Of a stretch of DNA of 64,000 bases, positions 1-26,212 are shown one piece after another. The position numbers and the translations under genes were made by a program. The DNA is from a virus. The notes beneath the pieces were generated by a model. That model was not told where the DNA came from. It worked only from the letters and a program-made list of their open reading frames with translations, and made no database searches. The stretch covers positions 1-64,000 of IMG/VR virus record IMGVR_UViG_3300045988_146982. One strand, written 5' to 3'. Each line of letters opens with the position of its first letter. Positions within the stretch are counted from its first letter, which is position 1.

Positions 1-65
1 CTGCATAAAAAAAACTGCATTTCTACGAATATATTTGAGCAAAATTGTATAGTAGTTTATTCACT

Positions 66-1298
66 ATGGCAACAATCAGATTAACAGTTTTAAATTCCAT
101 TAAGGAATCAAATGGGAAACTTCCGATTCTTATCTGTATTTCTCAAAAAAAAGACCGTGCATACATTAAAACAGAATTCTTACTTGATGATATTTCCGAA
201 TTTGAAGACGGGCGAGTTGTGTACAGAAAGGATGCCGGAATTATTAATAAACGCATACAGTTTGTATTCTCACAATATAAAGAGAAGTACGACTCTATTG
301 CAGATTTGGAATTCTTGTCAGCTTCACAAATCAAATATGTAATTACAGCAAAAGAACGCCCTCCTTACATATCATTCATTGAATATTGGAAAAAGAGGAT
401 AGCAGATTTTAGGAAAGATGGCAGGGAAAGCTATGCTAAAATGAACGAGGATACAATTAAACTGTTCATTAAAGCAGAAGGAGATATACCTATACCAGCT
501 ATAAATTATAAAATAGTAGAACATTTCAATAAATGGATGATTACGCATGAATATGCAGACGGAAATATAGGGATTAGACTAACCCATTTGAAAGCACGTA
601 TCAATGAACTTATAAGAGAAAGTGTATTAAAAGTAGAGGTACATCCCTTTGCATATACAAAAATTCCGTCTGCTACTCCAAAGGAATGTGACCTATCTAT
701 AGAAGAATTCAGGAAAATATTGAATGCTGATTTCACAGGGAAAGAATTAAATTTGGCAAGAGATATGTTCTTACTTTCATTTTATCTATGCGGGATTAAC
801 CTAAAGGATTTATTATCTGTGCACTTTGACAATTCTAATTATTTATCTTTTGAGAGGTCTAAGACTTCTCGCTCAAAACGTGGCGACAGCCGATTGACAA
901 TACCTATTCATGCAGTTGCTGCACAGATTATTGATAAATATCTCAAAAAAGGTAAGATTGATTTAGGATATTCTTTTTCTTACCAAAACTTGCAGAGATT
1001 CATAAACAGAGGAATGAAGAAAATGAGAAAATCCTTAGAGATAAATTCCACAGTTTGTTTCTATTCCGCCAGAAAAACCTTCGCCCAATTCGCCTCTGAA
1101 CTTGGTATCCCAGACGGAGTTATAGATTACTGCCTCGGGCATTCGGATAAAAGCAGAGGCGTAATCAGATACTACACAAAAGTCAAGCAGAAGCAAGCGG
1201 AAATAGCAATAAACAGGGTGATTGACTATGTAAACAATCCTGAGAAGTACAAGGATTACATAGAAATGAAAGCAGATATTATGATGATGAAAGGATAA
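66..1298 (+). CDS. int: tyrosine site-specific integrase
   Basis: ORF 45..1298; C-terminal ARKTFAQFASELGIP...LGHSDKSRGVIRYYTK (H-x-x-R plus catalytic Y region); likely start ATG 66 (MATIRL). Confidence 0.85.
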   Translation: MATIRLTVLNSIKESNGKLPILICISQKKDRAYIKTEFLLDDISEFEDGRVVYRKDAGIINKRIQFVFSQYKEKYDSIADLEFLSASQIKYVITAKERPPYISFIEYWKKRIADFRKDGRESYAKMNEDTIKLFIKAEGDIPIPAINYKIVEHFNKWMITHEYADGNIGIRLTHLKARINELIRESVLKVEVHPFAYTKIPSATPKECDLSIEEFRKILNADFTGKELNLARDMFLLSFYLCGINLKDLLSVHFDNSNYLSFERSKTSRSKRGDSRLTIPIHAVAAQIIDKYLKKGKIDLGYSFSYQNLQRFINRGMKKMRKSLEINSTVCFYSARKTFAQFASELGIPDGVIDYCLGHSDKSRGVIRYYTKVKQKQAEIAINRVIDYVNNPEKYKDYIEMKADIMMMKG

Positions 1299-1471: not shown

Positions 1472-2068
1472 TTACGATCTCGCCTTAGGTTTTCTCTTTT
1501 GGGATTCATCATATCCTAATTGCCAAAAGTACATATCTACAATCCTCATTGGAGGATACTGCATGTTTCTATCAATCATCAATTGACACTCTTCTATATC
1601 TCTCACATGATTTTTTGCAAATTCATAGACAGAGCTAATGGTGGGTATAGACCCTTCTTTCAGTTTCCATCCATCTACAAAAAAACGGTCAAAAGCCGGA
1701 ATACATCCCAATGTACCCAACAAGACCTTCGTTTGCAGTGTTCTTGAAGCTTTTATAGCAATATTTTCATATCTATTTTTAACTTCATTCATAACCTCTT
1801 GTGCTTTATCTGCTTCAATTACGCAATCACGTCTTAAGGCTAATGGCTTTATATATTCTACTACTGGAATATGAATTTTATAATCTTTTTGTAGTAACTC
1901 AGTGGACCCCCTGTACATTCCCCAGCTAGCAAGATAGAAAGCCAAATGCAAAGCCAAATAGTCTATTGAATTATTAGGATTACCAAAGGCTTCATAACAA
2001 TGTTCCCATGACAGGTAGCGATGATTCTTATTGCATTTCGCAATATATTCTTTAACAATGTTTTTCAT
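1472..2068 (-). CDS. hypothetical protein (int-proximal cargo gene)
   Basis: ORF 1472..2089; probable start ATG 2068 (MKNIVKEY); no motif recognised. Confidence 0.6.
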   Translation of the reverse strand: MKNIVKEYIAKCNKNHRYLSWEHCYEAFGNPNNSIDYLALHLAFYLASWGMYRGSTELLQKDYKIHIPVVEYIKPLALRRDCVIEADKAQEVMNEVKNRYENIAIKASRTLQTKVLLGTLGCIPAFDRFFVDGWKLKEGSIPTISSVYEFAKNHVRDIEECQLMIDRNMQYPPMRIVDMYFWQLGYDESQKRKPKARS

Positions 2069-2149
2069 AAATACTTCATTTTGCAGCAAACATATAAAAA
2101 TGCCCCGACTTTCGCAAGCCGGAGCAGTCCAATTTATAGATTTAAAGTC

Positions 2150-2671
2150 TTATGATGAAGCTTGCCTGTTGCGCCAATGTTTTCGTACCACCAACGTGAC
2201 AACAAGCAAAACGGTTACACAAACACAGGCAAAACCTATTTGTTTAAGCAGCGTGGATTCTTTTTTCTCCTTTACCCCTTCAGTCTTGGTTTCCTCATGT
2301 TTGGTGGAAGTGGTTTCCTTGTCAGCTTTCACCTCCGTACTGTCTTCGGTTGCAGTTTCCTTCTTTTTATTCTTGCTGAAATCACCTTCCACATGTCCGT
2401 CAGCCAGTAACGGAGGTTCCCCGGTCAGGCGGTCAGGTGGTTTTCTTGTATCATAGATACGGAAATCAATCACATAGCTGCCATTAGTGGTTATCAACTC
2501 TCTTAAAGAAGTTGTAGAACCATGTACGATGTTGACCGATTCACGTGTACTATCCTTCAGTACAATCTCTGTGTCAGATTTAACAGCCTTATGCGAGCTG
2601 CCACACGATAGCAGCAGGAACAGACAACACATAAAGGAAACCGGCAATATATGCCGGCTTACCAAATTCAT
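2150..2671 (-). CDS. lipoprotein with C-terminal TM segment, unimolecular-spanin-like
   Basis: Lipobox LLLLSCGSS near N-terminus, C-terminal TM IGFACVCVTVLLVVTLVV; directly downstream of endolysin; start ATG 2671. Confidence 0.55.
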   Translation of the reverse strand: MNLVSRHILPVSFMCCLFLLLSCGSSHKAVKSDTEIVLKDSTRESVNIVHGSTTSLRELITTNGSYVIDFRIYDTRKPPDRLTGEPPLLADGHVEGDFSKNKKKETATEDSTEVKADKETTSTKHEETKTEGVKEKKESTLLKQIGFACVCVTVLLVVTLVVRKHWRNRQASS

Positions 2672-2675
2672 AACC

Positions 2676-3194
2676 CTAACCAACATAAGAGATATCATTT
2701 ATACGGTTCATCCACCCTCTCTTGAATTTGTTGTTCGCAGGACGCTTGCGGCATATATCCTCAATGAAGTCAAACCGTGCAATCTTAATCATGTCGAACA
2801 ACTCACGCGGGTTCTTGGCATTTACCGAAGCAATGGTCTTGGGACCTACAATGCCATCCTCCGTAACACCAAGCAGGCGTTGAGGAATCTTAATGCCATG
2901 AACACCGGATGCCCACACCCAGTCCACAAGAATATTTGCTACAGACTGATTCTGTATCAAATCAGCCTTCCATCTGTCCCAGTACATGGTCTTCAAGATT
3001 TCCGTCCATTCCTCTTTCGTGAGATTTTTCAATCTTTCAACTGTAGGCTTGGAATATCCTTTCTTTCGGCAATATGCCTCATAGGTTCCGATAGTCACAC
3101 CCATATTGGTAGCCCCTCCCAAATCGTCAGGGTCATTTACAAAACCGCCTTCCCACTTTAGGACAAACGGTGCAAGTTTTCTTACGTCAGCCAT
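2676..3194 (-). CDS. endolysin, GH108-type lysozyme with peptidoglycan-binding domain
   Basis: N-terminal [23 protein letters not shown] motif typical of Glyco_hydro_108; ~170 aa. Confidence 0.85.
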
Positions 3195-3579
3195 TCTTCT
3201 TTTCCTCCTTATCTTTAATTAATGTAGCTCTGCGTGGTGGAATACGACGGCCACATTCGCTGTCAGGCCTGTCACAACGGTTGTGCTCGGCATCTTTCAA
3301 TTGTAGTTCCAGCTCATGGCACTTATGAATCCATGTCAGCTTATCAGACTGTTCGTTACGAAGCTCAACGTATAACGCATCAATCTTGGCGTCACGCTGG
3401 GCGATACGTTCTTCCAGCCAATCAACCTGTTTACGCTCGTTCTCATCCTCCATTGAATCGGCGGACGCATCCTCCTTCCGCGCGTTCGTCTTGCGGTTTA
3501 CCCAGAACGTGACACCCCAGCGGACAGCCTCCAATCCCCCGAAAGCCCCGATTATAGCCAACCAGTCATTTAATTCCAT
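3187..3579 (-). CDS. membrane-anchored coiled-coil lysis-cassette protein (holin or i-spanin-like)
   Basis: N-terminal [24 protein letters not shown] followed by charged coiled coil; 8-nt overlap with endolysin start. Confidence 0.5.
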
Positions 3580-3707
3580 TCCGTCTATTGTTTATCTGAT
3601 TATAAATGTTATTTTTGCATGTGTTTTTCATAACCCAATAGACCTGGCGAGGTCGTTGCATAAGTTTTTCCCTGCTGTCCGAAAAGGCATGCAGGGATTT
3701 TTTTACA

Positions 3708-4220
3708 TTATAAACCTGCAACCAATATGGATGCATAAGTAGCTGACAACGCGGCTATCTCAATCCAAAACATCGGCTTGGTACGCAGGAAATCCGTTAT
3801 GATGCTGTCCGATACGTGGCGGGGCATCATCGCCAACGTATAAATAATGTAGACAAGCCATACCGTCAGGCACCACGGGCAATTACAGGCAACCCACAGC
3901 TGAGAGCCTGCGATACACAAGATAGCCCCGGCGGTATGCACCTTCCCTTCAAACTCATCCTTGAAGTTGGGGGCTGCACCAACCATCAGCATACCTATGC
4001 AGGACAAGAACGCCAAAAACTCGGTATCCGGTTTACTCACTTCCAAGATGGCAGGCATCAGCAGCCCGGCGGTAAGCCACGTCGTTACCATAAACCAATG
4101 CTTGTGTTCCAACTTATAGAACGTGGCACTGATGGAAGCAGGAACGCCCCCTTGTTTGACACATACCGCTGCCGTATAAGCAGCTATCACCAACATTGAT
4201 AAAATCACTAACCAAATCAT
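3708..4220 (-). CDS. multi-pass membrane protein (holin candidate)
   Basis: 170 aa with about 5 hydrophobic segments; first gene of the lysis cluster. Confidence 0.5.
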   Translation of the reverse strand: MIWLVILSMLVIAAYTAAVCVKQGGVPASISATFYKLEHKHWFMVTTWLTAGLLMPAILEVSKPDTEFLAFLSCIGMLMVGAAPNFKDEFEGKVHTAGAILCIAGSQLWVACNCPWCLTVWLVYIIYTLAMMPRHVSDSIITDFLRTKPMFWIEIAALSATYASILVAGL

Positions 4221-4232
4221 AACTTTTTATTT

Positions 4233-4859
4233 TTAAAGATTAAACACTAATTGTTCTGGATAACCCGCTGAATAGTCGAAGAACTTCACTTCCTCTGCTG
4301 TTTCCATTTGTTCGACCTGCGCCGCATGTTCGGCAGTTACATTATAGCATTGCAGGGCATACAGCTCCAACGCTGCAAGCATCTGCAATGCGGTATCTAC
4401 CGGAATAGTGTACTTCACTCCACCAAACCAAAGGTTGGTTTCCGGCTTTCCGGCATCTTTTTCTATGCCAATTGAATTGACCAGTCCGACACGGGTTGCT
4501 TTGTCCAGCCAAATACGATTACCGGCGAGCATGAACGAATTGACGGTCTCCGACCGGTCATAAGCAGCGATCTTGTTTAACATGAACTCTTTGAATACAG
4601 ACGTTTCATTACCGCCTGCAAACCCAAGAGCTTCAAATATAGTTTCCAATTCTTGGGTGGTCATTTCCTCATTCAATCCATACCCGTTTATTCGTTTCAC
4701 AAACTCATCGGCCGTCAGGTGTCCTGTCATTGTTGCCGTGTATGCTTCGTATCCGCCTTCAACCTCCCGGATACCAAAATTCACAGTGGTGTAGATTTGA
4801 TCCACCACTTTGTCAACCACCACTACCGATGGCTTCTCTTCATACTTTTTCTTCTCCAT
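4233..4859 (-). CDS. hypothetical protein downstream of DGR RT
   Basis: ORF 4233..4883; ATG 4859 (MEKKKYEE) avoids overlap with RT stop at 4867. Confidence 0.6.
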   Translation of the reverse strand: MEKKKYEEKPSVVVVDKVVDQIYTTVNFGIREVEGGYEAYTATMTGHLTADEFVKRINGYGLNEEMTTQELETIFEALGFAGGNETSVFKEFMLNKIAAYDRSETVNSFMLAGNRIWLDKATRVGLVNSIGIEKDAGKPETNLWFGGVKYTIPVDTALQMLAALELYALQCYNVTAEHAAQVEQMETAEEVKFFDYSAGYPEQLVFNL

Positions 4860-4866
4860 GATTGCG

Positions 4867-6306
4867 TTAATTTGGTAATACATAATTCAACTCTTTATAC
4901 ATTTTTCTATACCTCTTCCTGATACATACCTTTTCAAAATGACCTGATATGTAAAAGTATTTATAGAATCTGCTCCCGAAGAGCGATAATACCCATTTCC
5001 TGTGGCGGTAGGTCTTAAGCCCTTTGCAGAACCCAAGATAGCTATTCAGGACCGATTCGATGCGGGCGCAATCATTGGCGGTCAGCTCGGTTGTTTCAAT
5101 CATCCGGTTAAAGCCTGTGGCACGTTCCTTGAACCTTGCCAATGTGCGGTTGCTCAAATAACATCTTCCGGGCTTGATATACACGCCTACGAATAAAACC
5201 CCGTGCGACACAGGTTGCAGGTACCGCTTGTCCTTATGCAGCTTCAACAGCAATTTCCCGCCAAGAAATGCTTCAAGTTCCGGTATCACCCCCTGCAATG
5301 CTTTCAAGTCGTCGCATACCAACAGGAAATCGTCCACGAACCTCACATAATGGGAGTTCAACCGCCGTGTCTTCCATATTACATAACTGTCAAAGAAGGA
5401 CATGAGAAAATTGGCAAACAACTGCGTGGTCAGATTGCCTATCGGACCGCCTTTGCCCTCCCCGTTGCGAAGCAGGGATTTGTTTTCGGGCAACTGCCTC
5501 CACAAGGTCGTATCACCGTTGAACACGCAATCCTTTTCCGGGCTGTGCAATACAACCGCCCGTATCACCCTTAAAAGGATTTCCTTGTACCCGCCATGGT
5601 ATTTCCTTTTCGTGAAGCGCAGCAGCATGCCAAGCTGCAACACCCGGTCTATCGACATGAAGAACGAAACCAAATCGCCCTTGAACACCCATGCAGGTCT
5701 GCGGTAGCCGCAGGAAACAGCCTCCATGCCTTGCACAGCACTTAATACGGCTGTTCTGGTGCCGTAACCCTTACGGCAGTTATGTGACACGTTCCCCTGC
5801 GATTCGAACCGCTCTTCAAACAAAGGTTCAAGCCGCAGGCATATCCAATGGTGCACGATACGGTCACGGAAATTGGCAGCAAACACTTCCCTCAGTTTCG
5901 GGTATCTTACAAGAAAACAGGTGGATGTGGACGGTTTGTATGTGCCTGTCCACATCTCTACAGCCAAACAGACAATGTCTTCTTCGGCTATCTGCATATA
6001 CTCGACTGCCTGGCAGGAACTCATCTTCCCGCGTAAGCAGTCCTTATAAGCATCGATAACCGTATCCAGGAAACATTTGAAATCCGTTCCGTATGCTGCC
6101 ACCGCCCGCGCCCTATTACCGTTGTACTTGTTGTTGTTGCTAGTGTTGCCACTGGAGAAGTTCACATACCAACTGTTGTTGCGGCTGTTCTCGGTACTGG
6201 ACCAATACCACGAGGCGGAGACTTCTTGCGTATTTGCATCTTCGTTACTATGGCTTGCCACCATAGTAATACGCCCATTCAGAGGATTTCGCCGTACACT
6301 ATTCAT
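4867..6306 (-). CDS. DGR reverse transcriptase; the ORF includes the template repeat at its 5' end
   Basis: RT motifs GPIGNLTTQLFANFLMSFFD and RFVDDFLLV (YxDD-type); N-terminal AYKDCLRGK like DGR RTs; residues ~30-71 are TR-encoded. Confidence 0.9.
   Translation of the reverse strand: MNSVRRNPLNGRITMVASHSNEDANTQEVSASWYWSSTENSRNNSWYVNFSSGNTSNNNKYNGNRARAVAAYGTDFKCFLDTVIDAYKDCLRGKMSSCQAVEYMQIAEEDIVCLAVEMWTGTYKPSTSTCFLVRYPKLREVFAANFRDRIVHHWICLRLEPLFEERFESQGNVSHNCRKGYGTRTAVLSAVQGMEAVSCGYRRPAWVFKGDLVSFFMSIDRVLQLGMLLRFTKRKYHGGYKEILLRVIRAVVLHSPEKDCVFNGDTTLWRQLPENKSLLRNGEGKGGPIGNLTTQLFANFLMSFFDSYVIWKTRRLNSHYVRFVDDFLLVCDDLKALQGVIPELEAFLGGKLLLKLHKDKRYLQPVSHGVLFVGVYIKPGRCYLSNRTLARFKERATGFNRMIETTELTANDCARIESVLNSYLGFCKGLKTYRHRKWVLSLFGSRFYKYFYISGHFEKVCIRKRYRKMYKELNYVLPN
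6093..6220 (-). repeat. DGR template repeat (TR), 128 bp
   Basis: Aligns with 6832-6959 at offset 739: 116 identities, 12 mismatches, all at coding-strand adenines of this copy. Confidence 0.92.
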
Positions 6307-6767
6307 ACCTTCTCAGTATTAAAACCCTGACGGCTTGTGAAATCGCGCCATGCTGTCAACTGCGCAATCAATTTATCAGATTCGCTGCGGAGTTTGTTGC
6401 ACCTGTCTTTCGACAAGACACCGACACGCTCCAAAATCACAAAATAATTTCGGATAACAAACAGCAAAGACATTGCATTGCTGATGTACCAGCTCCGTTC
6501 TTCCCCTCTCGATTCGTTGGCAAGGGCAACCGATTTACCGACTTCCGACATATCGGAAATCATCAAATCGGTATACCGGCTCAGTTTTCGAGGGCAAGCC
6601 ATCATGATTTGCGCTATCGAAAACATCAGGTTGCTTGCCGCACGAAAGGCAGGAAGCTGGGCGGTCCCCCGTTTCTGTTTCTCTTTCGCGGCGTTGCTTC
6701 GGGCAATCTCTTCACCCGTAAGACAAACGCATTTTTGTTCCTTGTTTTCTGCTGTTTCCTGTTTCAT
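6303..6767 (-). CDS. avd: Avd-like DGR accessory variability determinant (helical-bundle candidate)
   Basis: Small basic helical ORF between target gene and TR/RT; stop TGA overlaps RT-ORF ATG (ATGA at 6303-6306). Confidence 0.65.
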   Translation of the reverse strand: MKQETAENKEQKCVCLTGEEIARSNAAKEKQKRGTAQLPAFRAASNLMFSIAQIMMACPRKLSRYTDLMISDMSEVGKSVALANESRGEERSWYISNAMSLLFVIRNYFVILERVGVLSKDRCNKLRSESDKLIAQLTAWRDFTSRQGFNTEKV

Positions 6768-6784
6768 ATTATAATCTGCTTCAA

Positions 6785-6808
6785 GGCACGCTCCAAAAGG
6801 AGCGCGCC
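6785..6808 (-). promoter_or_regulatory. hairpin with 4-nt loop just downstream of VR and the target stop
   Basis: GGCACGCTCC-AAAA-GGAGCGCGCC: 9-bp stem with one A.C mismatch, 7 nt past stop codon 6815-6817. Confidence 0.6.
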
Positions 6809-6814
6809 GAAAGG

Positions 6815-9800
6815 TTAAAGTTTAAAAGTGAATGCTGCCACCGCCCGCGCCCTATTACCGTAGCACTTGCCGTTGCCGCTAGTGTTGCCACTGGAGAAGC
6901 CCACATACCAACTGTTGCCGCGGCTGCCCTCGGTACTGGACCAATACCACGAGGCGGAGTGCAAGGCAAAAGGATTCGCACCGACATTGATATCCCTTAC
7001 CCGTTTCAGCATGTTTGCGAATAACGGCATCCGCGCTTCGCTTGACGGGTGTTCATCTGCATAGTCCGCTGTCGGGGCCGTGTTTATCTTGAAGCCACGG
7101 CTGCAATTGTGGAAATTGTAGATACGTGCCAATTCACCATTTGCCGGAAGATACCAATTGCCGCTGCGGTACTGCTCATGCACCGCTTCGGCTTTCGGCT
7201 CGTACAACCGGCACATATATGCTGCCGGATAATAGAACTGCCAGTACTTTTTTGCACCGGAATTGGAAGCAGCCAACTCTTTCATCGCCTTGTAAAGCTC
7301 TTCCATGGTTTCCGGCAATGGGACGTCCAGATAATTCAGCAGGATATGGTTGCAGTGCTCAATGATGATGTCCGTTTTCTCCTTCCCGTCAAAGTCATTG
7401 ACAGAACCTGATGTGAGTACGGCATATCCGTCATCCGTATCATCATCCAAGTAGTTATCTTCGTTGATGTAGTTGGAAGATGGTTTACCGTTATTTGGGT
7501 CGGTCGTTTGAGACAGCCCGGTGCTGTTTATATTCGGCATTGCGGTATCTGTCGCTGAAGCAATGCCGGCAGCATTCTGGATGGCATCCTCTATTTCCTG
7601 TGGAAATCCGTTGGTGGCGGAAGCCTCCGGGTACAATCCCCATGGCCAACTTACAACATTCGTATTTTCATCTACCATTATGATATCCTCGGCGGCATCT
7701 ATACGCAGTTCGTACTCGGTATCGCTCTTCTTTGTTCGCATAAATACCACGCCGGCGAGTGTCTTGCTAGGGTCATAGGCATCGTCAAATGTGCCGTCCG
7801 CGTAGGCGAAGTCCCCGATTTCGGGTATACGGTTGAAGAACCCGACCTGCTTGGTCTGTTTCATTACCCTGTTGTCCATCGTGGTTACTTCCACCGTCAC
7901 CGTGAATCTTTCCTTCAATGCCGCATCGCTCAATTTCTTTACATGAAGCACGCCGTTTACAGGATCGGTAAACCCGGCATAAAGCGAGGCTCCATCTTCG
8001 ATAGACCAGTTGACCGCAGCATGCCCGTCCACGATTTTCACGTTGTTGGCACTGGTAGGCAATACGCTGATATGGAATCCGGTGTATTCCCCAAGCGTGA
8101 AAATGTAGTTGTTGCCCTGTATGGATATGGAGTTGATGGCACGGACGGGATAACTGACATACAGCGGATTATCCGTGCTGTCAATATCCCCGTAGCGTCC
8201 TACCAGCTTCATTTTCTCGTCAAACGTGATATACCGGTCGCCAGATGCGTTCATCAGGGCTATGGACCCTGTCAGGACAGATTGTTTGTCACACAGGAAC
8301 ACAAGCATATCCGCCGTGACGGATTCCCATTCAACGGACTTGAACGTCACGCTGCTTAACTCTTCGGTCGCCCCGGTGTACAACTGCGCGGCGAATGCCC
8401 GGCTGTTGAACGCCCCGGCACCTTTCTGGTCGACGTAGACAGTTTGCAGGTTGCCTACGCCTTCGATTCCAGCCGTCTTCAATCCGGGCAGATCATCCAA
8501 ATGCAGCGCGGTCAACTTGGCGGGCAGCTCCAGGTTCTCCAGGCTTCCAGTCTTGGGAAGCGTCACGGTGGAAAGGGCGGTTCCCGACACACCAAGGCTT
8601 TCGGCACGTGTCAGCTTCGACAGGTCCAGTATACCGGCTAACGCTTCCACGCCGTTCAGGTTCAGGCGTTTCAGGTTTGGCGTGTTTATCTTAAAGCTGG
8701 AAGCGTTGAACTCGACAACCTTTATGCCTTCTTCACGTCCGGCGGAAAACTCCGTGAGCCGTTTTCCCGACAGGGCAAATTCCCCGGTCAACGGCTTGTC
8801 ACCCCAATTGCCGATGCTGCTGTAGCAGTCCGGTGCCAGGAGCGCGCAGGGTGTGTCGTTATCCGTTATAAATGATATGGTATAGTTTTCCCCGGCTTTG
8901 ACACGCTGCGGAAGTCCGTACGCTTTCCCGTCATTGTCAGCCCCAAAGCCCAATGACTGCCCGATAGCCACCGCCGGATAAATCCACATGAACGGACGCA
9001 GGTTAAAGGTATAAGTCGGCTGTTTGCCATCTTTTGTGTAGCGGCTGCGGAACGATATGGACTGCGAGCTTGCCACGCTGAAATCGCCATACGAACAGAA
9101 CGAGGAAAGATACACGGTACGCATCTTCAGGTACTGCATCTCACCTTGCAACTGGTCTCCGAGTGATTGCGAGATAGCCGATACGGAGGGTGGATTATAC
9201 AACCCTTCGTTTGCTTTTTGCTCTGCGTATTCGTAGAGTAGCCGTGCCGTCTCGTTATAGGCAACAGCCGGAAAATACTTTTGGATGCGGAAATAGAACT
9301 TCTCGAAACAGCCCATAGGGGAACCGCCTATTTTCGCCATTGCCGAAAATATCGCCTTCATGGTGGAGCGCAGCTCGGCAGGGAAAGCGAGTTCCATGAG
9401 GTTGTAGAACGTGTTCACTTCACCGTTCCAATAGTTCTTTCCGTTTGCGTTCAGGTCGTGTTCTTCCACATAATAGGGCTTGTCCTTGCGCCCGAGATTG
9501 TCGGTCAGGAAAATGGTATCCATGTCATCCTGGGCAAAACATATCAGGTGTGTCTTCGGGTCAAGGTATTGGTATGTGTTCTTTGCCCGGTTGTCACTGG
9601 CGGCAATCAGCTTCATCACCATCATTGTAAATCTGGCATCCGACAGGTTGTAATACTGTCCGATACCGGATTTGAACATTGCCACACGTGCGTTAATAAA
9701 CATCGCGTTCACCTCCTCCCATATCTGGTTCTGCACGGCTTCCGATTCATCGAACCCGGCAAGGTAATCGTTGAGCTGTGTGCGTAAGTTCAATTTCTCA

Positions 9801-12799
9801 TAACTGCCAACACCTGATTTGTTCACCCCGGCATCCACCCATGTGGAAGTAAGCCAGTCGTAACGGTACAGGTCGTACTGCTGCGCATCGCCTCCAGCCT
9901 TCGTCACCCAATACATCTTGTCTTTTTCAAGGTCTGCACCGGCAGCCTGTAGTTCGGCAAGTGTCCCCACAAACGCTTTCAGGCGGTTGGAACATTGATA
10001 TATGAAGTTATGTGCCGTTTGGAAATAACCAACCTGCTTTTCATTACCCAAATCAAAATCCCAAGACACAACCCCGTTATACTTCCATCCTTCCAATTCT
10101 CCCTCGTCGTCAATGGATGGCTCAACGTCTTCGTTCCACGGTACCTGGTGCAGCGTCAGTACGGCACCGTTGTCCGACCCTTCGATCATTAGGTAGTCGG
10201 GAAATACTTCTTTGTCATATCCGAATGTCGGCTTGTCGCCTTTTCCGGGTCCGAACGTTACCAAGCCGTAGAATACAGGTTCAGCCGATTCGTTTTCGCG
10301 GACAAACATCATGAACGGAAGTTGCTTGACGCATACACGGCATTTTTCATAACCACCCGTTTCCGTGATGGAATTACCACCAACCACTTCTTTCCACAAT
10401 TCGTGGTACAGGTCGCACGACCCTGCCTTGTGACTCTGCTGGGAGGAAGCCCAGTTCAGTTTCGCCACCAGCTTGGTGGCAGGCGGCACATCATCCGTCA
10501 ATTGGTAAGCCGCTCCACGGTCGGTTCCGTTTCCGTCAATCCAATTATAATCGCCAAAGCCGTACTGGTGGTTCCACAGGAAATATTTCTTTGATGACGA
10601 ACCCTGTCCTTTCACGCTCATTCCCTTAATCGTACCGGAGTGGGACGGGTCGCCTACAATATTAATCGTCAGGTCTCCTTTCTTCTTCGCCTGGTCAAGG
10701 ATATAAGGGAGTGAGCCGGTCCAGAGCATCGTGTTGTACTTCTGCGAAGCGCGCTCGTAGTTGATCAGGTTATTATACAATACGTCATTCTTGTCGCGGA
10801 ACGCAATCTTTTCGCTTACCTCCGTCATACTTGCCATATAATCCTGCCGTATGTCAGTGGCTGAAAGGGCTTTCTTATAGATGCGGATACCGTAGATATC
10901 CACATCAGAGGTTTCCGAGCCGATGCGGATACCGTGCGAGGTGAGCACCCCATTCACGCGCTGGATGAATTTGTCTGTTTCGGTATAGACGAACTCACGG
11001 TTGATGATTCCGTTGATGAACAGACGCACGTAACTGATACCATGCCCACCGAGGTTATAAATGATATTTACAGCCAGAAGGGTGCGGGTGTCCTCCTGGA
11101 ACATCACATCCTGGTCGGTGGGCGTACGGTGCCCAGTGGTCAGGAAGTACGCCTCTTGCGGACGGATTTCCAAGCCCAAGGGCAGTCCGTCGCTTGCGTA
11201 GGTGGAGCACATGCGGATAATCGGTTCTGCAAGGTCGGTCGCGTTGCGGGAAGCGTAGTCAATCTCAATGGTCAGTGAACTCTCCTGGGTCTGTCCGGTG
11301 GTTTCGGAATAGCTCTCGTAGTCAATATCCAGCGAGCATCCGGCAAGGACGCGCAGGCATTTGGCTCCGGCACTGTCAGTCTGCCATCCGTCCGTCAATA
11401 GTTCGAAGCCTTTCCATACGGACGGGACCTCCTCACCCGTTTCCTGGTTGACAATCCGCATCGGATTCTCCTCGGTGTTGGTGCGCTGTTTGGGGTTCAG
11501 CACGAAATCAGCCCCCTTGGTGGGAGAAAAGTTTTCGCTGTTGTCAATGGTGAAGAGAAGCTGCTGCCGCAGTTCCGTATCGCCGGAATAAAAGAGCATG
11601 CGCCCGTTCAGCGTGTCACCTGCGCCTTCTTCCGTTTCGACTTCGACCATCGCGCTCAGTTCATAGCGTGTGCGGTTGGCTGCCGCCGGAATGTCCTGCG
11701 TCAAATAGGCTTCTTGCAGCTTGCCATCCATCAGGCGAAATTGCACGGGCGTTGTTTCGGCTGATGGATTATAAACCGCCCACTCGAAAAACTTCACCGT
11801 ATTCCAGTTGGTCAGGTCACGCTGTATGCCGTTCAACGCCATCAATATGCCCGTTTCCCCTTCTTCGGCTACCATGATTTGCGAAACCAAATCATCGGTC
11901 TGCACTGACGAACCGCTGCTCAGGTAAGCTGTGACGGTATAGACGCCATGCTTCTTGGGGCTGTCAATCTCCAGAATATAGGGTGTTTCCGTATAGACGT
12001 TCGTACCGAGGGCACGGGTAAAGGTCCGGTCGTAGTCCTTACCGGTAACACGTACCGTAAGGTCTTTGGCAATGTTGCCGGTGACATAGTAAGACAATGG
12101 GATACGCTCGCCGTCAAAAGGATTTTCCCATGTGGCGGCAAAGTCAAGCGCAAGGCTTGTCACCGTGATGGAGTAACTGACGTATGTGGTTGACAGTTCC
12201 GTGGTCTCACCGCGGCAGATGATACGGACAGATTGCTGCCCGAGCGTCAGGTAATCGCCGATAGGGACTTCCACCCAGTCGGATGAATCAGCCGGGTAGG
12301 ATTCAATCTTCACCGTCCCTTTGGTGCTCCAGTTGCTTGCGCCTTCCACTTTGGTCTGTATCGTCAGTACGCCCATTTCGCCAGTATCGGTGGTCTGCTG
12401 CGTGGCAGGGTTGAATACCTGCGAGGTAAAACGGAGCTTGACACTCAATTTTCTTGATGTCGTGATGATGGTACGCTCCGAACCGTTCACAAGGTTCAGG
12501 ATATAGCTGGTTGCCGAACTCGATCCGTCGCCACTTGGCAAGGCAATATCAAACAGGACGTTCGTTGCGAATGCTTCCGGGTTGCTGTTCCATTCATTAT
12601 AACGTTCCTCATCGGCAAAGCCGCGAAGGTGGTAGTTCCCGTCTGTTTCCTTGTCCGTTGTCCGGGACAGATACCCGGCTTTGCTCTTGAACTGCTTTTT
12701 GATGAACTCTTCCACACGGGAACCTTTATACATTTCTGAAGACGTGCTCCACGGCACTTCTATGCTTTCAATCTCTTTATCCAGTTTTATCTTTGCCAT
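6815..12799 (-). CDS. 1994-aa tail fibre / receptor-binding protein, DGR target with C-terminal DUF1566-like (C-type-lectin-fold) variable domain
   Basis: C-terminus GNWYLPANGELARIY...SASWYWSSTEGSRGNSWYVGFSSGNTSGNGKCYGNRARAVAAFTFKL carries the VR; LRR-like segment mid-protein. Confidence 0.9.
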   Translation of the reverse strand: MAKIKLDKEIESIEVPWSTSSEMYKGSRVEEFIKKQFKSKAGYLSRTTDKETDGNYHLRGFADEERYNEWNSNPEAFATNVLFDIALPSGDGSSSATSYILNLVNGSERTIITTSRKLSVKLRFTSQVFNPATQQTTDTGEMGVLTIQTKVEGASNWSTKGTVKIESYPADSSDWVEVPIGDYLTLGQQSVRIICRGETTELSTTYVSYSITVTSLALDFAATWENPFDGERIPLSYYVTGNIAKDLTVRVTGKDYDRTFTRALGTNVYTETPYILEIDSPKKHGVYTVTAYLSSGSSVQTDDLVSQIMVAEEGETGILMALNGIQRDLTNWNTVKFFEWAVYNPSAETTPVQFRLMDGKLQEAYLTQDIPAAANRTRYELSAMVEVETEEGAGDTLNGRMLFYSGDTELRQQLLFTIDNSENFSPTKGADFVLNPKQRTNTEENPMRIVNQETGEEVPSVWKGFELLTDGWQTDSAGAKCLRVLAGCSLDIDYESYSETTGQTQESSLTIEIDYASRNATDLAEPIIRMCSTYASDGLPLGLEIRPQEAYFLTTGHRTPTDQDVMFQEDTRTLLAVNIIYNLGGHGISYVRLFINGIINREFVYTETDKFIQRVNGVLTSHGIRIGSETSDVDIYGIRIYKKALSATDIRQDYMASMTEVSEKIAFRDKNDVLYNNLINYERASQKYNTMLWTGSLPYILDQAKKKGDLTINIVGDPSHSGTIKGMSVKGQGSSSKKYFLWNHQYGFGDYNWIDGNGTDRGAAYQLTDDVPPATKLVAKLNWASSQQSHKAGSCDLYHELWKEVVGGNSITETGGYEKCRVCVKQLPFMMFVRENESAEPVFYGLVTFGPGKGDKPTFGYDKEVFPDYLMIEGSDNGAVLTLHQVPWNEDVEPSIDDEGELEGWKYNGVVSWDFDLGNEKQVGYFQTAHNFIYQCSNRLKAFVGTLAELQAAGADLEKDKMYWVTKAGGDAQQYDLYRYDWLTSTWVDAGVNKSGVGSYEKLNLRTQLNDYLAGFDESEAVQNQIWEEVNAMFINARVAMFKSGIGQYYNLSDARFTMMVMKLIAASDNRAKNTYQYLDPKTHLICFAQDDMDTIFLTDNLGRKDKPYYVEEHDLNANGKNYWNGEVNTFYNLMELAFPAELRSTMKAIFSAMAKIGGSPMGCFEKFYFRIQKYFPAVAYNETARLLYEYAEQKANEGLYNPPSVSAISQSLGDQLQGEMQYLKMRTVYLSSFCSYGDFSVASSQSISFRSRYTKDGKQPTYTFNLRPFMWIYPAVAIGQSLGFGADNDGKAYGLPQRVKAGENYTISFITDNDTPCALLAPDCYSSIGNWGDKPLTGEFALSGKRLTEFSAGREEGIKVVEFNASSFKINTPNLKRLNLNGVEALAGILDLSKLTRAESLGVSGTALSTVTLPKTGSLENLELPAKLTALHLDDLPGLKTAGIEGVGNLQTVYVDQKGAGAFNSRAFAAQLYTGATEELSSVTFKSVEWESVTADMLVFLCDKQSVLTGSIALMNASGDRYITFDEKMKLVGRYGDIDSTDNPLYVSYPVRAINSISIQGNNYIFTLGEYTGFHISVLPTSANNVKIVDGHAAVNWSIEDGASLYAGFTDPVNGVLHVKKLSDAALKERFTVTVEVTTMDNRVMKQTKQVGFFNRIPEIGDFAYADGTFDDAYDPSKTLAGVVFMRTKKSDTEYELRIDAAEDIIMVDENTNVVSWPWGLYPEASATNGFPQEIEDAIQNAAGIASATDTAMPNINSTGLSQTTDPNNGKPSSNYINEDNYLDDDTDDGYAVLTSGSVNDFDGKEKTDIIIEHCNHILLNYLDVPLPETMEELYKAMKELAASNSGAKKYWQFYYPAAYMCRLYEPKAEAVHEQYRSGNWYLPANGELARIYNFHNCSRGFKINTAPTADYADEHPSSEARMPLFANMLKRVRDINVGANPFALHSASWYWSSTEGSRGNSWYVGFSSGNTSGNGKCYGNRARAVAAFTFKL
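6832..6959 (-). repeat. DGR variable repeat (VR)
   Basis: Counterpart of the TR; GC-rich invariant 3' end (coding sense) GGGCGCGGGCGGTGGCAGCAT resembles an IMH. Confidence 0.92.
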
Positions 12800-12812
12800 A
12801 ATTCACATTGTT

Positions 12813-12992
12813 TTATTTGTTACCGTCCCAATACTCATCCCCGTCCCAAGGTTTGTCCCCGTCCCAATATCCGCTGCCGAAGCAGCTTCTTACAGCCATC
12901 CAAACAAGCCGTGCCCCTTTGTAGATGGCCGATACCGCCCGCCGGCCGTAGTAGATGACTAGCACCTCTTTTTCTTTCACCACGATTCCCAT
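12813..12992 (-). CDS. small protein with WDG repeats (59 aa, below the ORF-track cutoff)
   Basis: My translation: MGIVVKEKEVLVIYYGRRAVSAIYKGARLVWMAVRSCFGSGYWDGDKPWDGDEYWDGNK; fills the gap between flanking genes. Confidence 0.5.
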   Translation of the reverse strand: MGIVVKEKEVLVIYYGRRAVSAIYKGARLVWMAVRSCFGSGYWDGDKPWDGDEYWDGNK

Positions 12993-12995
12993 ACG

Positions 12996-13346
12996 CTATT
13001 CCTCCAATACGTAATACATGGTGTCCGGGTCTATGCGGTCACCAAGGTTTTCAAACTCGTTTTCTGTCAGCAGGACCGGGACGAAGCCGAACAGCTCCTT
13101 TCCCAGCTCGGATGCCGCCTCGGTCTTTTCCTCCGGAGTCATATCGCCCCATGCGGCAGCGCCTTTTTCAGCCATTATCATCCATGTGGCATCGTCTGTG
13201 CCCGGCGTTACGCCTTTGGTCTTGTCCTTGAGACACACGTAGGAGCTGCCCAAATGGAACACAAGGTCAAGCCGGTTGTATTCCTCTGGCTCTGCATATC
13301 GCCCGCGCGGGATGAAAGTCACCCTTCCCAATATTGTTTTTGCCAT
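12996..13346 (-). CDS. hypothetical tail-module protein
   Basis: 116-aa ORF tightly packed in the tail operon. Confidence 0.6.
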   Translation of the reverse strand: MAKTILGRVTFIPRGRYAEPEEYNRLDLVFHLGSSYVCLKDKTKGVTPGTDDATWMIMAEKGAAAWGDMTPEEKTEAASELGKELFGFVPVLLTENEFENLGDRIDPDTMYYVLEE

Positions 13347-13354
13347 ATCGCCTT

Positions 13355-14236
13355 TTATCCGTTAATTGTTAAACATAGTTCACCGTCATCCAACGTGAAA
13401 ACAGGACCGGTATATTTGTCAGGGGTGGTACAGACGAGTTCCCCCTTGGCTATGTCGATGTCGAAGGCGGCGAACATTATATCTCCGCGGGCGAAAGTGC
13501 CGGTGTCGCGGTATTCGCCGGTTTCTTCATCCCACACCCACCAGTTGCCGTTTCCCCCGATCTTCGCCGGGTTGTCGGCGTAGGCTTGTGCGCGATCCGC
13601 TTGATTTTGCGCAGCCGCAGCCGCTTCTTCCGCTTTCTTTGTGGATTCTTTAAATCCTTTCTCGCGGGCAGTTTCCGCTTCGGCACGTTTGTTCTCAAAC
13701 AATATGCGGTCGTTCTCCTGTCGTTTACGGATGTTTTCATTACCGATTCGTGCGTTTTCATTGCTGATGCGTGTTTGTTCATTGGACGACACCGTGCGGT
13801 CGGTATCCTCCAGCTTCGCGATCATCTCCGCAGCCGGGCGTTGCAATTCGGCAATCTCTTCGGGAGTAAAATCCTTCAGGTGGGGAATAAGCATGCGCAC
13901 CTCATCTTCGGTCAGGTCTTCGAAACGGAGCTTGATGTCGGCTATGTCAACCAAAAGCCGCCATGTGGTGTCGGGGTCGGGAATATACTTGTACTCAATG
14001 CCGGTCTCTGTTTTGCGGAATTCCGGCGTCTTGCCCTCTGCGACTACTCCGGTGCCGATGTCTCCCACCCACCATACGCCATCCCGGATGGAAGGTTTCA
14101 GGCTGTCAGACACCGCCGCCTTGAACAGCGCAACCGATATACGCCCGTTTACCCCGGAAGACAGGACCAGCAGTATGTTATCATTCCCGCCGACACCGGA
14201 CACAGGGGTAAAATCCTTTATGTCTATATCATTCAT
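13355..14236 (-). CDS. tail-fibre-associated coiled-coil protein
   Basis: ORF 13355..14248; ATG 14236 forms an ATGA overlap with the upstream stop; central E/R-rich coiled coil (NENARIGNENIRKRQEND). Confidence 0.6.
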   Translation of the reverse strand: MNDIDIKDFTPVSGVGGNDNILLVLSSGVNGRISVALFKAAVSDSLKPSIRDGVWWVGDIGTGVVAEGKTPEFRKTETGIEYKYIPDPDTTWRLLVDIADIKLRFEDLTEDEVRMLIPHLKDFTPEEIAELQRPAAEMIAKLEDTDRTVSSNEQTRISNENARIGNENIRKRQENDRILFENKRAEAETAREKGFKESTKKAEEAAAAAQNQADRAQAYADNPAKIGGNGNWWVWDEETGEYRDTGTFARGDIMFAAFDIDIAKGELVCTTPDKYTGPVFTLDDGELCLTING

Positions 14237-14523
14237 CCCTTGCGACATGGCGGTATCTGTTTATGTTTTCCGATATAATCCTTCATGGAATCGGCAAATA
14301 CTCCGGGGAACAGGTCTATGCTGCTTAATATGGTGTCCACTTCGGTATCGTCAAGCTCGGTTTCCCCGGTGGAGCGAAATATCTTCTCGGCAAGCACGTG
14401 CGCCGATATTCCGGGAATGTTCCTGTAGATGGAATCGGCATACTCTTCCGCTATGTCCCGCTCCACAACCATGTCCTTGCGTATGTTTGCATACATCGGG
14501 AATTTTCTAAAATTTATTTTCAT
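14233..14523 (-). CDS. hypothetical tail-module protein
   Basis: ORF 14233..14574; ATG 14523 (MKINF) lies just after the upstream stop at 14534. Confidence 0.55.
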   Translation of the reverse strand: MKINFRKFPMYANIRKDMVVERDIAEEYADSIYRNIPGISAHVLAEKIFRSTGETELDDTEVDTILSSIDLFPGVFADSMKDYIGKHKQIPPCRKG

Positions 14524-14533
14524 AATCTCTTTC

Positions 14534-17500
14534 TTAAATTGATAAATACATTTCATTCCAATAATATCCGTCATACATAAAGCCCCGGAAATGGTTGTCC
14601 TTGATCGATGTCGAACCGACCGGATTTCTGTTGTTGGCTTCCCGTATGGAACCGCTCATGGTTATATTCCCGGTATTGGCAGGCTTGATGAATACAATCT
14701 TCCCCTTCCACATGGTTGCGGAAGAAGGCAGGCTGACAGTAATCGAAGAAGTATTCTTACATACAATCAGATCATCGCTGCTTTTGACAGTATACGAGGA
14801 TGAAACCTCAATCGCATTAAGTGCCAATCCGTTTATCCGGACGAACTCTCCGCTTCGTGCAACAATTTCCGCGTTGCCTCTTGACTTCAACGCGTACCCG
14901 AAGCCGCCGGCGTTACATAGCAGCTCCAAGGCAATGGACAAATTACTGGAACCATAAGTGCTGAAACTTGCCGCCGTCCTGCCATCGGCACGGGCAGCCA
15001 AGAATGCGCTGCTTGAAGGGTCGTTCAGCCGGAGGAAGTTATATCCGCTGATCTCGAATTTAATGGAAGCATTGTTCCCGGATACCGACAAGGAATTATT
15101 CGAAATCGTAAACCCGCCGATAGTACCTTTACTCACATCAATTGACCCGTTGATTCCATCCAGCGTAAGCGTGCCGCTCTGCGACTGCATCTTCTGGCTC
15201 TTGAACATGAACCCGGCAATGTTGGCTCCGTCAATCAGGGCGGTATCCATCGCCACGAAGCTGAACTTGTTGGACTGTTCCCAATAAGAGGTGTTGGTGG
15301 GGGTGGCAGAACCGGAATATCCGTACGGCTTGACAATATAGGCATTGCCGTTATATATCACGATATCGCGGTATTCGCTGTTGTAAACATAAGTCTCGGA
15401 CGATTTGTATGTGCCGCGGTAGCGCGGCATGGAACCCGAAGGTCCGCGGTCGCCGGCAGGACCTTGCGGACCCTGTGGTCCGCGGTCCCCATCTTCTCCG
15501 TCCGATACTATCTGCGCATAAGCCACACACTCAATGTTGCTGAACGGTTTTGCCACAATCTTATAATACTTGTACGAAGAGGACACGGAGACCGTGAATG
15601 TGGTCGAATAGGAAGAACCGGTGGCATACTGCGACCATGATTCGTTATCGTTACTCCGGTATATGTACCATTGGGCGGACTCTGCCGCCTGGGTATTATT
15701 ACTGTTCTTGTAACAGGTGCAGACAAAAGATGAAGGGTCCAGTGAGCCTGTTATCTTCTGACCGATGGTCATTTGGGCAGGAGATATGCTATAATAGCAG
15801 GCGTCTTCACCGGGTTTGCCATCTTCGCCGTCATGCCCAGGCTGCCCGGGCTTCCCGTCCTCGCCGTTTGTCAACACGGGAATCGTTTCACGGTCTACAG
15901 GTTGTCCGTTGCAATAAAGGGAAAATGTAATGCTTGTGCCGGCAGACGTTACGGAGAGCGGACTTCCGATGGCGTAGGCAACCTCTTCCCCGTCATCAAT
16001 CTTACGCATCATGGCATAACCATCCGGCAGGACGGTTACACGTACAGGCGCATTCTTCCCGTCCGTCTTGCGGAGCACGCACGTAATGGAAGACACGGAA
16101 CACGAACCGTCCGAATTCTTTTTGATGGAGCTTTCAGAAGGGAGCAGGTCGTAAATGACAGCAGGGTCCCCGTCCGTCAGCTTCGTGATGCCGAACTGCA
16201 CCGGCTTGGAATATTGTTCACCGGCAAACGTGGCGTATGCCCGTACCGGGATGGTGATAACCCTGCTGCCGGGCACTGCCGGAATAGCGGTGACGGTAAT
16301 CACGCCTGTTTCCACATCTTTGGATACACTGACACCCTCAGACGCTTCCACTTCTATCCTGTCCAATCCAAGCCGGCGCGTGCCATACCACATGCTGACA
16401 ACAGTCGTGCAGGGCAGTCCGTTCAGCACGTTGCCATAGGTGTCGCAATGTACGGCGCACATTTCGTTTGACAGGTCCGCCGATATGATGTTCCATCCGT
16501 TTTGGTTGACATTGATGGTATAGGTTTTCAGGAATGATGCGTTTCCTTCGCAGTTCACTGTGATGCCGATGCTCATGCCGCCAAGGTCGGTCAGCCCATC
16601 CACAATGACAACCCCGTTCTCCACGTGCGCAGTGCAGCCGACAGGCTCGATTGACACCATGAACGCGCCGGCTTTCAAGGTTTCCGAGTAAACCAGTTCC
16701 TTTTCGCCCTTGAAAGCCTGCACGCGGGTGGAAAGGCGGAAGCCGGTCGCCACCACATTCTCTTCTCCGCCTATTACGTTCCTGCCGCCTGCGGTCACAT
16801 TCTGCACGGTCTTTGCCCCGTTGATGATATTGCCCTCTTCGTCCACCGTCACAACACCCTCGTAGCTGGACAGGTTGACGCTGTATGCAGTGAGCTGGTC
16901 CACCTGGTCGGGAGTGAACTGGATATGCACGCCGGTCATGTAACCGTTCTTCTGGAACGTCCCGTGACCGTGCATCTCCATGCCGCCGATGGTAGTGCCG
17001 TCCAGCAGCCCGGACTGGTACATGATATGTTTGTCGGGGTCAATCTGCCAGGTATCCACTCCCTCCAGGATACGCTTGTAGTAGCGGTTCTCGTAGGTGA
17101 TGGACTGACGCTCCTTGTCGGTAAAATTGCCGTAGGCGAAGAAGTTCATCCCGGGCATGGGGTGTACGCCGGTGCCCACTTGCAGGTTGTATTCGAAGCT
17201 CATCAGCCCGGCTTTGCTTTCAACAATCCGGGTGGGAGTAAAATATGAAGTGGCAAAGCCGGAGTATCCCATGAAGCCGTTCTTGTCGAACAGGGTCTGC
17301 TCTTCGTTGCTGCCTTCCAAATTGTGGAAGACGCCACGACAGATGTCGTTGACGTGCAGCGTTCCCCACTGGTCGTCCAGCAGGTCAAGCGTGGCAATGC
17401 GTTTTTCCCTGTCTACGGTCTTAATGGTACCGTAAGCAAATGTGTTTGCTTTGTCACCGGCTATCACATCAATGCAGTTGAATGTGATTTTGGGAACAAT

Positions 17501-19303: not shown

Positions 19304-19322
19304 GTCTTCAAAGTTCGGAGAT

Positions 19323-19352
19323 AAAAAAAAGAGTGCCCAATTTTGAGCACTC
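19323..19352 (-). terminator. intrinsic-terminator-like hairpin followed by T8 inside the tail operon
   Basis: Minus strand GAGTGC...GCACTC stem followed by TTTTTTTT, 20 nt upstream of ATG 19303. Confidence 0.55.
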
Positions 19353-19357
19353 ACATA

Positions 19358-19383
19358 CACGACAATAGAGCCAATGTCGTGAA
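19358..19383. promoter_or_regulatory. CACGACAAT-N-ATTGTCGTG family inverted repeat, copy a (imperfect)
   Basis: CACGACAAT agagcc AATGTCGTGAA. Confidence 0.5.
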
Positions 19384-26054: not shown

Positions 26055-26212
26055 ACTTTTACACAGTTTTAAAAATTGAACCCCACCAAAGGACGCTCCT
26101 AACTTCATCCGATGGCGGGGTTTATACTTTTCAGCTGTTAGGATAGCTGCGTTATTTCTGTTTGCGAATTTACCACTAACCGATTGCGTGACCTAAAAAG
26201 TGTCGTGCGTAG

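Follow-up and report, generated by a model that had tools for sequence, protein, structure and literature searches.

Whether a reverse transcriptase (RT) gene accompanied by a repeat pair marks a diversity-generating retroelement (DGR) that is still at work, and what such an element would diversify, is the question raised by positions 4867-12799 of IMG/VR virus record IMGVR_UViG_3300045988_146982, of which nucleotides 1 to 64,000 (the window) were analysed in this study. The locus comprises a target gene ending in a variable repeat (VR), an avd-like gene, a template repeat (TR) and the RT, and together these parts very probably constitute a functional DGR of a temperate Bacteroidales prophage, whose activity recodes the C-terminal ~40 amino acids of a tail-module protein 1994 residues long. 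An earlier sequence-only reading of the same DNA had proposed a complete DGR at this place, and every component was found here, namely the RT, an Avd fold, a TR/VR pair with adenine-only mismatches and the signals at the 3' end; the open reading frame (ORF) coordinates that it gave for target, avd-like gene and RT were all correct. The type of DGR is itself well known from temperate phages of gut Bacteroidales, where the C-terminal tips of ~2000-residue proteins are affected (PMC6199706; bioRxiv 10.1101/2024.11.15.621889), and what might surprise a DGR specialist is limited to a priming step without a spacer, a translated TR and an uncatalogued RNA element.

The repeat pair provides the most direct signature of adenine-specific mutagenesis. 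The TR (6093-6220, minus strand) contains 36 adenines, including those of 10 AAC and one AAT asparagine codons, and occupies in-frame codons ~30-72 of the RT ORF. The VR (6832-6959, minus strand) spans target codons 1947-1988 and a single additional base on either side, after which the target ORF closes with five codons (FTFKL) and a stop. A repeat finder returned the pair as the single long direct repeat between positions 4000 and 14000, and a repeat search with base-by-base comparison of the 128-bp copies, which lie at an offset of 739, gave 116 identities and 12 mismatches (91% identity), with homology breaking off sharply at either end. The coding strand of both copies is the minus strand, and every mismatch is at a TR position where the plus strand has T and the coding strand A (6123, 6125, 6131, 6132, 6137, 6138, 6161, 6162, 6179, 6180, 6188 and 6189). 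Thus, 12 of the 36 TR adenines differ, compared to 0 of the 92 other bases (hypergeometric P=5.3e-8). The changes from TR to VR in the window are 11 A>G and one A>T, converting AAC to GGC at five codons (Asn to Gly), TAC to TGC at one (Tyr to Cys) and AAC to TAC at one (Asn to Tyr). All of this agrees exactly with the coordinates, offset, counts and 12 mismatch positions listed in the sequence-only reading, and translation reproduced the TR- and VR-encoded peptides that it had given. The theoretical repertoire of the TR amounts to 9e19 peptides, and no second VR was found in the 64-kb window.

Evidence on whether the element is still active comes from other copies of the same phage, which were recovered from public viral and metagenomic contigs by a scan with the RT protein and by patterns matching the VR flanks. 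Eight assemblies (from the set of the window, L001-L006, L028 and L029) have flanks that are 95-99.9% identical, and these independent, near-identical assemblies carry eight distinct VR alleles. When each VR is compared to its own TR, 88 of the 91 mismatches lie at adenines (binomial P=1.5e-44), consisting of 61 A>G, 22 A>T and five A>C substitutions. The substitutions are skewed to G (11/12 in the window and 69%, or 61/88, family-wide), with many AAC>GGC double changes that replace Asn with Gly. Mutated sites are found within repeat positions 26-105, and the adenines toward the ends (positions 15, 23, 107, 124 and 127) are unchanged. Assemblies L002 and L004 differ at 13 of 128 VR positions but at only 1 of 7,805 nt outside the VR (1 difference over the remaining 5,840 nt of the target and 0 over the 1,965 nt of avd-TR-RT), and this pattern therefore points to very recent retrohoming. 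In the three assemblies whose TRs show non-adenine differences (L005, L006 and L029), the VR carries the bases of its own TR, which shows information flow from TR to VR. The RT ORF is intact in all eight assemblies (for L028 and L029, as judged from their colinear match to the window at 98.5-99.2% identity). All of 24 more distant relatives, and the isolated phage BS-TP1 as well, contain this cassette, and their VRs are adenine-biased. The population check proposed in the sequence-only reading, run here on assemblies, thus found variation almost wholly at TR adenines (88/91), and in place of the pairing that it had named as the sign of a fossil (no heterogeneity at adenine sites together with a broken RT), heterogeneous VRs and intact RTs were found. 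The element is evidently active and not a fossil. In addition, a second VR occurs in two related lineages with ~80% RT identity (L007, 13256-13384, minus strand; L008, 20852-20982, minus strand), where it lies on the opposite strand and 9-11 kb further downstream than the RT. It differs from the same TR at 14-15 positions, all of them adenines, and is followed by the same downstream hairpin.

The proteins expected of a DGR are encoded between and beside the repeats. The RT ORF (4867-6306, minus strand, 479 aa) starts with an ATG that overlaps the avd stop codon (ATGA at 6303-6306) and is laid out as a leader containing an RNA element (residues 1-29), the TR-encoded segment (residues 30-72) and, from residue 81 (nt 6066 downward), a region homologous to bRT, the RT of the BPP-1 DGR. 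It matches phrog_1423 (reverse transcriptase) in PHROG at 7e-64, and when all PDB sequences were searched, the closest solved structure was bRT itself (8ub7_A, E=1.3e-24), followed by much weaker matches to group II intron and retron RTs. In the alignment to bRT, GGPIGNLTTQLFAN corresponds to GIPIGSLTSQLFAN and RFVDDFLLV to RYMDDIVVL. The FVDD catalytic box recognized in the sequence-only reading is therefore present and aligned to the bRT YMDD box; the motif that it had described as SQ-type is actually a TQ variant, with IGNLTTQLFAN aligned to IGSLTSQLFAN of bRT. Equivalents of bRT residues R74, I181 and Q187 are also kept, of which R74 and I181 are said to have been linked to adenine infidelity by Handa et al. 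(NAR 2021). The protein is thus a DGR-clade RT with an intact catalytic site, and its nearest genomic relative, in a Parabacteroides metagenome-assembled genome, is 80% identical.

The neighbouring gene (6303-6767, minus strand) encodes a 154-aa accessory protein that had been called avd-like, and structure prediction bears this out. Its AlphaFold (AF2) model, with a mean predicted local distance difference test (pLDDT) score of 79, is a four-helix bundle (helices 37-57, 60-84, 88-115 and 120-153) with a basic N-terminal extension. Foldseek ranked 2gsc, 2rld, the Avd chains of 8ub7 (8ub7_B-E) and BPP-1 Avd (4dwl) at the top, with superpositions reaching template modelling (TM) scores of 0.85-0.89 (target-normalised) and root-mean-square deviations of 1.2-2.0 Å; for 4dwl and the Avd chains of 8ub7, the deviations were 1.5-1.9 Å. 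A profile of 12 Avd-like relatives matched the S23-IVP-family protein 2gsc over its full length (E=1e-3), and an Avd-like gene adjoins every related RT. The gathering thresholds of the Pfam families bAvd (PF22296) and 23S_rRNA_IVP (PF05635) were not reached, with weak bAvd matches in just 2 of the 12 relatives. By its modelled structure, the 154-aa neighbour has the Avd fold, extended at the N terminus by a basic segment.

DGR target-site signals, consisting of a GC-rich element and a downstream hairpin, are present as well. The 3' end of the VR is GC-rich and adenine-poor (6832-6853, minus strand, AGGGCGCGGGCGGTGGCAGCAT) and is the same in the TR (6093-6114). These last 22 nt carry no mutation in any allele, the adenines at repeat positions 107, 124 and 127 being invariant throughout, and in sequence this segment resembles the initiation-of-mutagenic-homing (IMH) element. 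A hairpin follows 23 nt downstream of the VR (6785-6808, minus strand), with a 10-bp GC-rich stem (GGCGCGCUCC / GGAGCGUGCC) and a UUUU loop. Every VR of all related lineages is followed, after 20-35 nt, by a GC-rich hairpin of 8-11 bp with a loop of usually 4 nt; the stem sequences differ between lineages, and the second VRs of L007 and L008 have such a hairpin as well. By analogy, it resembles the target-site hairpin of BPP-1, reportedly described by Guo et al. in 2011, and would have a putative role in homing.

The gene that receives the variation (6815-12799, minus strand, 1994 aa) is the final large gene in the tail module, lying at its distal end after the tape measure gene, a 1608-aa tail-tip-like protein and two small ORFs. 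It matches phrog_24896 (function unknown) at 2e-129 and is 32% identical across its full length to gp27 of BS-TP1, which is also encoded upstream of a DGR. Database homologues carry PF07603. With a 22-sequence profile of the tip, matches were obtained to 8q4e (3e-7) and, at 6e-4, to the Bacteroides pilin 4eps in its C-terminal domain; a literature search for 8q4e ('HbP1') returned nothing relevant. These similarities suggest a resemblance between the C-terminal ~110 aa and DGR variable domains of the DUF1566/Lcl_C type, and a C-type-lectin fold of the tip is plausible. The position of the VR at the extreme C terminus (codons 1947-1988 of 1994) also fits a DGR target. For the N-terminal 1880 aa, no Pfam, PDB or named PHROG match was obtained, and a Pfam scan of the target in four pieces yielded no credible domain and no CotH. 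The upstream 1608-aa protein (14534-19360, minus strand) has weak matches to Prophage_tail, to collagen repeats and to tail-fibre PHROGs, and is a candidate tail-tip or primary fibre protein.

There are three potential alternatives to the reading of an active DGR that diversifies a receptor-binding tip, and they differ greatly in how well they fit these observations. One is that the repeats are an ordinary duplication or gene-conversion tract of the target 3' end in which no reverse transcription was involved. Direct repeats of similar size do occur among phage tail genes, and the TR and VR are read in the same frame; however, all 12 mismatches fall on one base type in one copy (P=5e-8), 88 of 91 mismatches across the alleles are at TR adenines with the same pattern at 25 related loci, and the repeat always lies between an Avd-fold gene and a DGR-type RT. 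This explanation has almost no probability left and is effectively refuted. It is also conceivable that the locus is a relic whose TR, VR and genes no longer diversify anything, as could be supposed from the single sequence in the window and from the low in vitro expression reported for many Bacteroides DGRs (bioRxiv 10.1101/2024.11.15.621889). However, all of the near-identical assemblies retain an intact and almost unchanging RT, Avd and TR while each has a VR allele of its own, and L002 and L004 are 13 nt apart within the VR while near-identical outside it; a fossil DGR is therefore very unlikely.

The third alternative concerns only the function of the target, which under the same DGR mechanism would not be the fibre that binds the host receptor; it would serve instead as an accessory adhesin, attaching for instance to mucus glycans or to some other surface, or as a decoration protein. 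The sequence-only reading had called the target a tail fibre and the element a programmed diversification of receptor binding, and here the results divide: turnover of the VR at adenine sites and a position in the tail module were confirmed, whereas no domain or structure matched a fibre and the receptor role is read from gene position. An adhesin would agree with the lack of a tail-fibre domain or structural match in the target, with the existence of a separate upstream 1608-aa protein that has tail-fibre and collagen-like matches, and with the discussion of the large C-type-lectin target of Hankyphage as a mucus adhesin (PMC6199706). Conversely, the target is encoded at the far end of the tail module, where it directly follows the tape measure, the tail-tip protein and two small genes, its BS-TP1 homologue follows genes annotated as baseplate hub and tail fiber, and the target of BPP-1, the sole experimentally defined phage DGR, is a receptor-binding protein according to its annotation. 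An accessory adhesin or decoration protein is accordingly the less probable identity, but one that carries appreciable weight.

It is also important to note that several results weigh against the reading of a functional DGR acting on a receptor-binding tail tip. The heterogeneity of the VR was seen computationally between separate assemblies rather than in the reads of one population. The A>G skew in the window exceeds random misincorporation and could reflect selection for Gly or a preference of the RT. The window Avd-like protein alone has no sequence match in Pfam, NCBIfam, PHROG or PDB, even at E<=10, so that its family assignment comes from the fold. Regarding the target, the Pfam Lcl_C (formerly DUF1566) match of the last 194 aa scores 28.2 bits, under the cut-off of 34.9, the AlphaFold model of the same segment (pLDDT 48 from a 22-sequence alignment) is unusable, and the label of tail fibre derives from gene position, no domain or structure match having been obtained. 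Finally, the priming step is not simply transferable from BPP-1, because neither a spacer nor a conserved structure lies downstream of the TR.

Taking an active DGR as the preferred reading, the following course of events can be proposed by analogy. The minus strand carries all four of target, avd, TR and RT, probably as one operon. The RT and a pentamer-forming Avd-type protein would copy TR RNA into complementary DNA (cDNA), misincorporating opposite template adenines. This cDNA would then take the place of the VR in the 3' end of the target gene, directed there by the GC-rich, adenine-poor homology on the 3' side together with the hairpin that lies downstream. Up to 23 codons (~1e20 possible peptides) could be recoded in a C-terminal ligand-binding domain of DUF1566/Lcl_C type, which would probably alter what the virion binds.

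The arrangement of the RNA from which such a cDNA would be copied is the unusual part of this locus. The sequence-only reading had placed the TR as an element between avd and RT; instead, the TR lies within the RT ORF rather than in an intergenic region, and it is in frame there in all relatives, down to ~47% RT identity (L001-L025, L036-L059). The end of the TR (6093) is separated from the first bRT-homologous codon (6066, bRT residue 16 onward) by 27 nt, or 8 codons. Among the relatives, a Met is conserved at -14 to +25 nt around the avd stop, and the peptide motif NPLNGR[FI]T upstream of the TR is conserved in most. The leader from the ATG to the TR contains 0 in-frame stops, compared to 34 and 35 in the other two frames (485 codons, 13 lineages), and length differences between lineages preserve the open frame. 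No conserved alternative RT start after the TR was found among the relatives. M95 was rejected as the true start, being absent in L015, L017 and L025 and deleting the conserved AYxDCxxGK (aligned with bRT residues 21-29), and a GTG within the TR was rejected as not conserved. The comparison of reading frames therefore suggests that the TR is probably translated and that the RT carries a TR-encoded N-terminal extension, which would include the peptide SWYVNFSSGNTSNNNK.

Just upstream of the TR and within the RT frame lies a structured RNA element (6219-6280, minus strand), which ends 7 nt before the TR. Its outer helix P1 pairs 6269-6274 with 6228-6233 and its inner helix P2 pairs 6261-6267 with 6247-6253; the apical insert of P2 varies and can reach ~65 nt. 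The 13-nt 3' internal loop is AACGAAGAUGCAA in the window (UACGAAG... in most relatives), the conserved form of this loop is UACGAAGAUGCAA (window AACGAAG...), and the loop motif is ACGAAGAUGCAA. The P1 helix is GCGUAU/AUACGC in the window and GCGAUU/AAUCGC, GCGGUU/AACCGC, GCGGCU/AGCCGC, GGGGCU/AGCCCC or GGGCAU/AUGCCC in other lineages. In the seed alignment, 97% of cells pair, compared to at most 39% with slid partners, and compensatory double changes occur in 8 of 13 pairs (16 distinct sequences). A second evaluation gave 96.6% paired cells, with slid controls not exceeding 45%. Synonymous variation is suppressed in the leader, where synonymous-site conservation is 0.75-0.86 as opposed to 0.55-0.60 in the RT body, and conservation drops to the RT-body baseline directly after the TR. 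A covariance model of the element found one match per DGR locus, 0 elsewhere in 510 kb and 0 in BPP-1. A scan of IMG/VR with a 17-base motif identified 17 further contigs, all with the full RNA element, and in all 15 of those that extend far enough downstream, an AAC-rich TR and an RT of 47-56% identity follow closely. No Rfam 15 family matched the element, a scan of positions 4000-8000 at E<=1 giving one chance match to Chlorobi-RRM.

Compared to BPP-1 (mtd-VR, avd, TR, Sp, brt), the window shares the gene order of target-VR, avd, TR and RT, a homologous RT with the common IG.LT[ST]QLFAN motif and D-D catalytic box, the Avd fold, a TR/VR pair of ~130 bp at the target 3' end, adenine-only mutagenesis, and the GC-rich 3' end with its post-VR hairpin. 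The RT motif is SQ in BPP-1 and TQ in the window, and the BPP-1 target, Mtd, has 381 aa, as opposed to a window target of 1994 aa with a DUF1566-type tip. A larger difference lies in the template RNA. In BPP-1, the non-coding TR directly follows the avd stop and is succeeded by a 144-nt spacer (Sp) before brt, with structured RNA downstream of the TR, whereas the TR of the window is inside the RT ORF and the conserved stem-loop of its clade lies upstream. The description of the gene order as canonical in the sequence-only reading accordingly holds for the order itself but not for the position of the TR within the RT ORF, the missing spacer or the upstream location of the structured RNA. The BPP-1 Sp RNA envelops the RT, binds Avd, forms a stop duplex and supplies the primer, and putative equivalents, again on the downstream side of the TR, have been reported for 207 of 278 DGRs (bioRxiv 10.1101/2023.10.23.563531). 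In the window, a non-coding spacer of BPP-1 type (~100-140 nt with conserved stem-loops) was not found after the TR, where 27 nt lead to the RT core, and RNAalifold, run on 11 lineages, predicted 0 conserved pairs within the 140 nt that follow the TR. No convincing template:primer pairing was identified; a duplex proposed by eye between the loop (GAUGCA) and the TR 3' end (GCAGCAU) was rejected, as it amounts to 4 bp in the main groups and has no consistent register in L015, L017 and L025. By analogy with Sp, we infer that the upstream element may take over at least some spacer roles, such as docking of RT and Avd or a barrier that stops cDNA synthesis at the TR 5' edge. It is possible, though on balance doubtful, that the clade to which the window belongs (Bacteroidales-phage DGRs on at least 40 contigs with RT identity down to ~47%, including BS-TP1) uses a rearranged DGR RNA in which a structured accessory RNA lies 5' of the TR and is translated together with it as the N-terminal 75-125 residues of the RT.

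Other known DGRs approach this arrangement in part. BS-TP1 (Bacteroides phage, PQ571274) encodes gp27 (target), gp26 (a four-helix-bundle protein), gp25 (RT) and gp24 (DUF4376), the same gene order as in the window including the DUF4376 gene after the RT. Its TR is in frame within the annotated 493-aa RT, the same upstream RNA element is present (69 bits) and its VR is adenine-biased. However, the proteins are distant, the Avd-like pair lacks BLASTP similarity, and BS-TP1 has a separate backbone of 112 kb, whereas the backbone of the window resembles BS-TP2. In the window, a 216-aa ORF (4233-4883, minus strand) overlaps the RT stop by 17 nt and has a weak DUF4376 match; a DUF4376 gene occupies the equivalent place after the DGR RT of BS-TP1, and it may be a conserved neighbour of the cassette. 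The DGRs of Hankyphage and other Bacteroides prophages likewise belong to temperate gut Bacteroidales phages (Benler 2018, PMC6199706; Macadangdang 2024, bioRxiv 10.1101/2024.11.15.621889) and, like the window, have the VR at the extreme C terminus of a ~2000-aa protein with a lectin-type tip and a small Avd-like ORF adjoining the RT; the window differs in that its DGR module is without nucleotide similarity to any phage record. Structural 'group 3' of DiGReF (Schillinger 2012, PMC3521204) contains DGRs in which, as in the window, the TR and the 5' end of the RT ORF overlap. That overlap is an annotation class only, to which the window clade adds comparative evidence of translation and a structured RNA; no analysis of the TR/RT-ORF overlap beyond the DiGReF cataloguing was found in the literature.

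The source of the window is a temperate siphovirus-like prophage of gut Bacteroidales, with genes for an integrase, terminase, portal, major head protein, replication and a tape measure (19804-23796). A tyrosine-type integrase (45-1298, plus strand) lies at the left end of the window, and an Ant-like anti-repressor (25287-26108), a tRNA-Val(GAC) (43458-43530) and a large DNA methyltransferase (49001-50734) are encoded on the minus strand; these four genes are consistent with a temperate lifestyle. In addition, the lengths of matching contigs from metagenomes (167 and 202 kb) point to integrated copies. Over 44% of the 24 kb queried, the head/replication half matches Bacteroides phage BS-TP2 at 92% identity. 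No megablast nucleotide match to the DGR/tail module was found among 50,697 phage records, BS-TP1 having been found by protein-level search only, and the G+C content of the tail/DGR module (2000-18000) is 45-53%, compared to 34-43% elsewhere in the window. From its composition and matches, the genome looks like a mosaic in which the DGR module has been horizontally exchanged.

Among the many DGRs known from gut Bacteroidales phages, that of the window is a further well-documented and evidently active one. It can aid annotation and provides a natural instance of hypervariation in a receptor tip, and the compact RNA motif can flag DGRs of its clade in metagenomes. BPP-1 is the only DGR whose RNA mechanics are understood, and those depend on a spacer RNA downstream of the TR. 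The clade described here is abundant in gut phages and offers a testable system for how general priming and termination of the BPP-1 kind are. A second question that it opens is how a DGR template is shared between translation and reverse transcription. If the rearranged RNA is real, one stretch of RNA would serve as messenger RNA, protein-binding scaffold and mutagenesis template, the transit of ribosomes and the use of the template would either compete or be coupled in cis, and the RT would carry a peptide copy of the unmutated variable domain.

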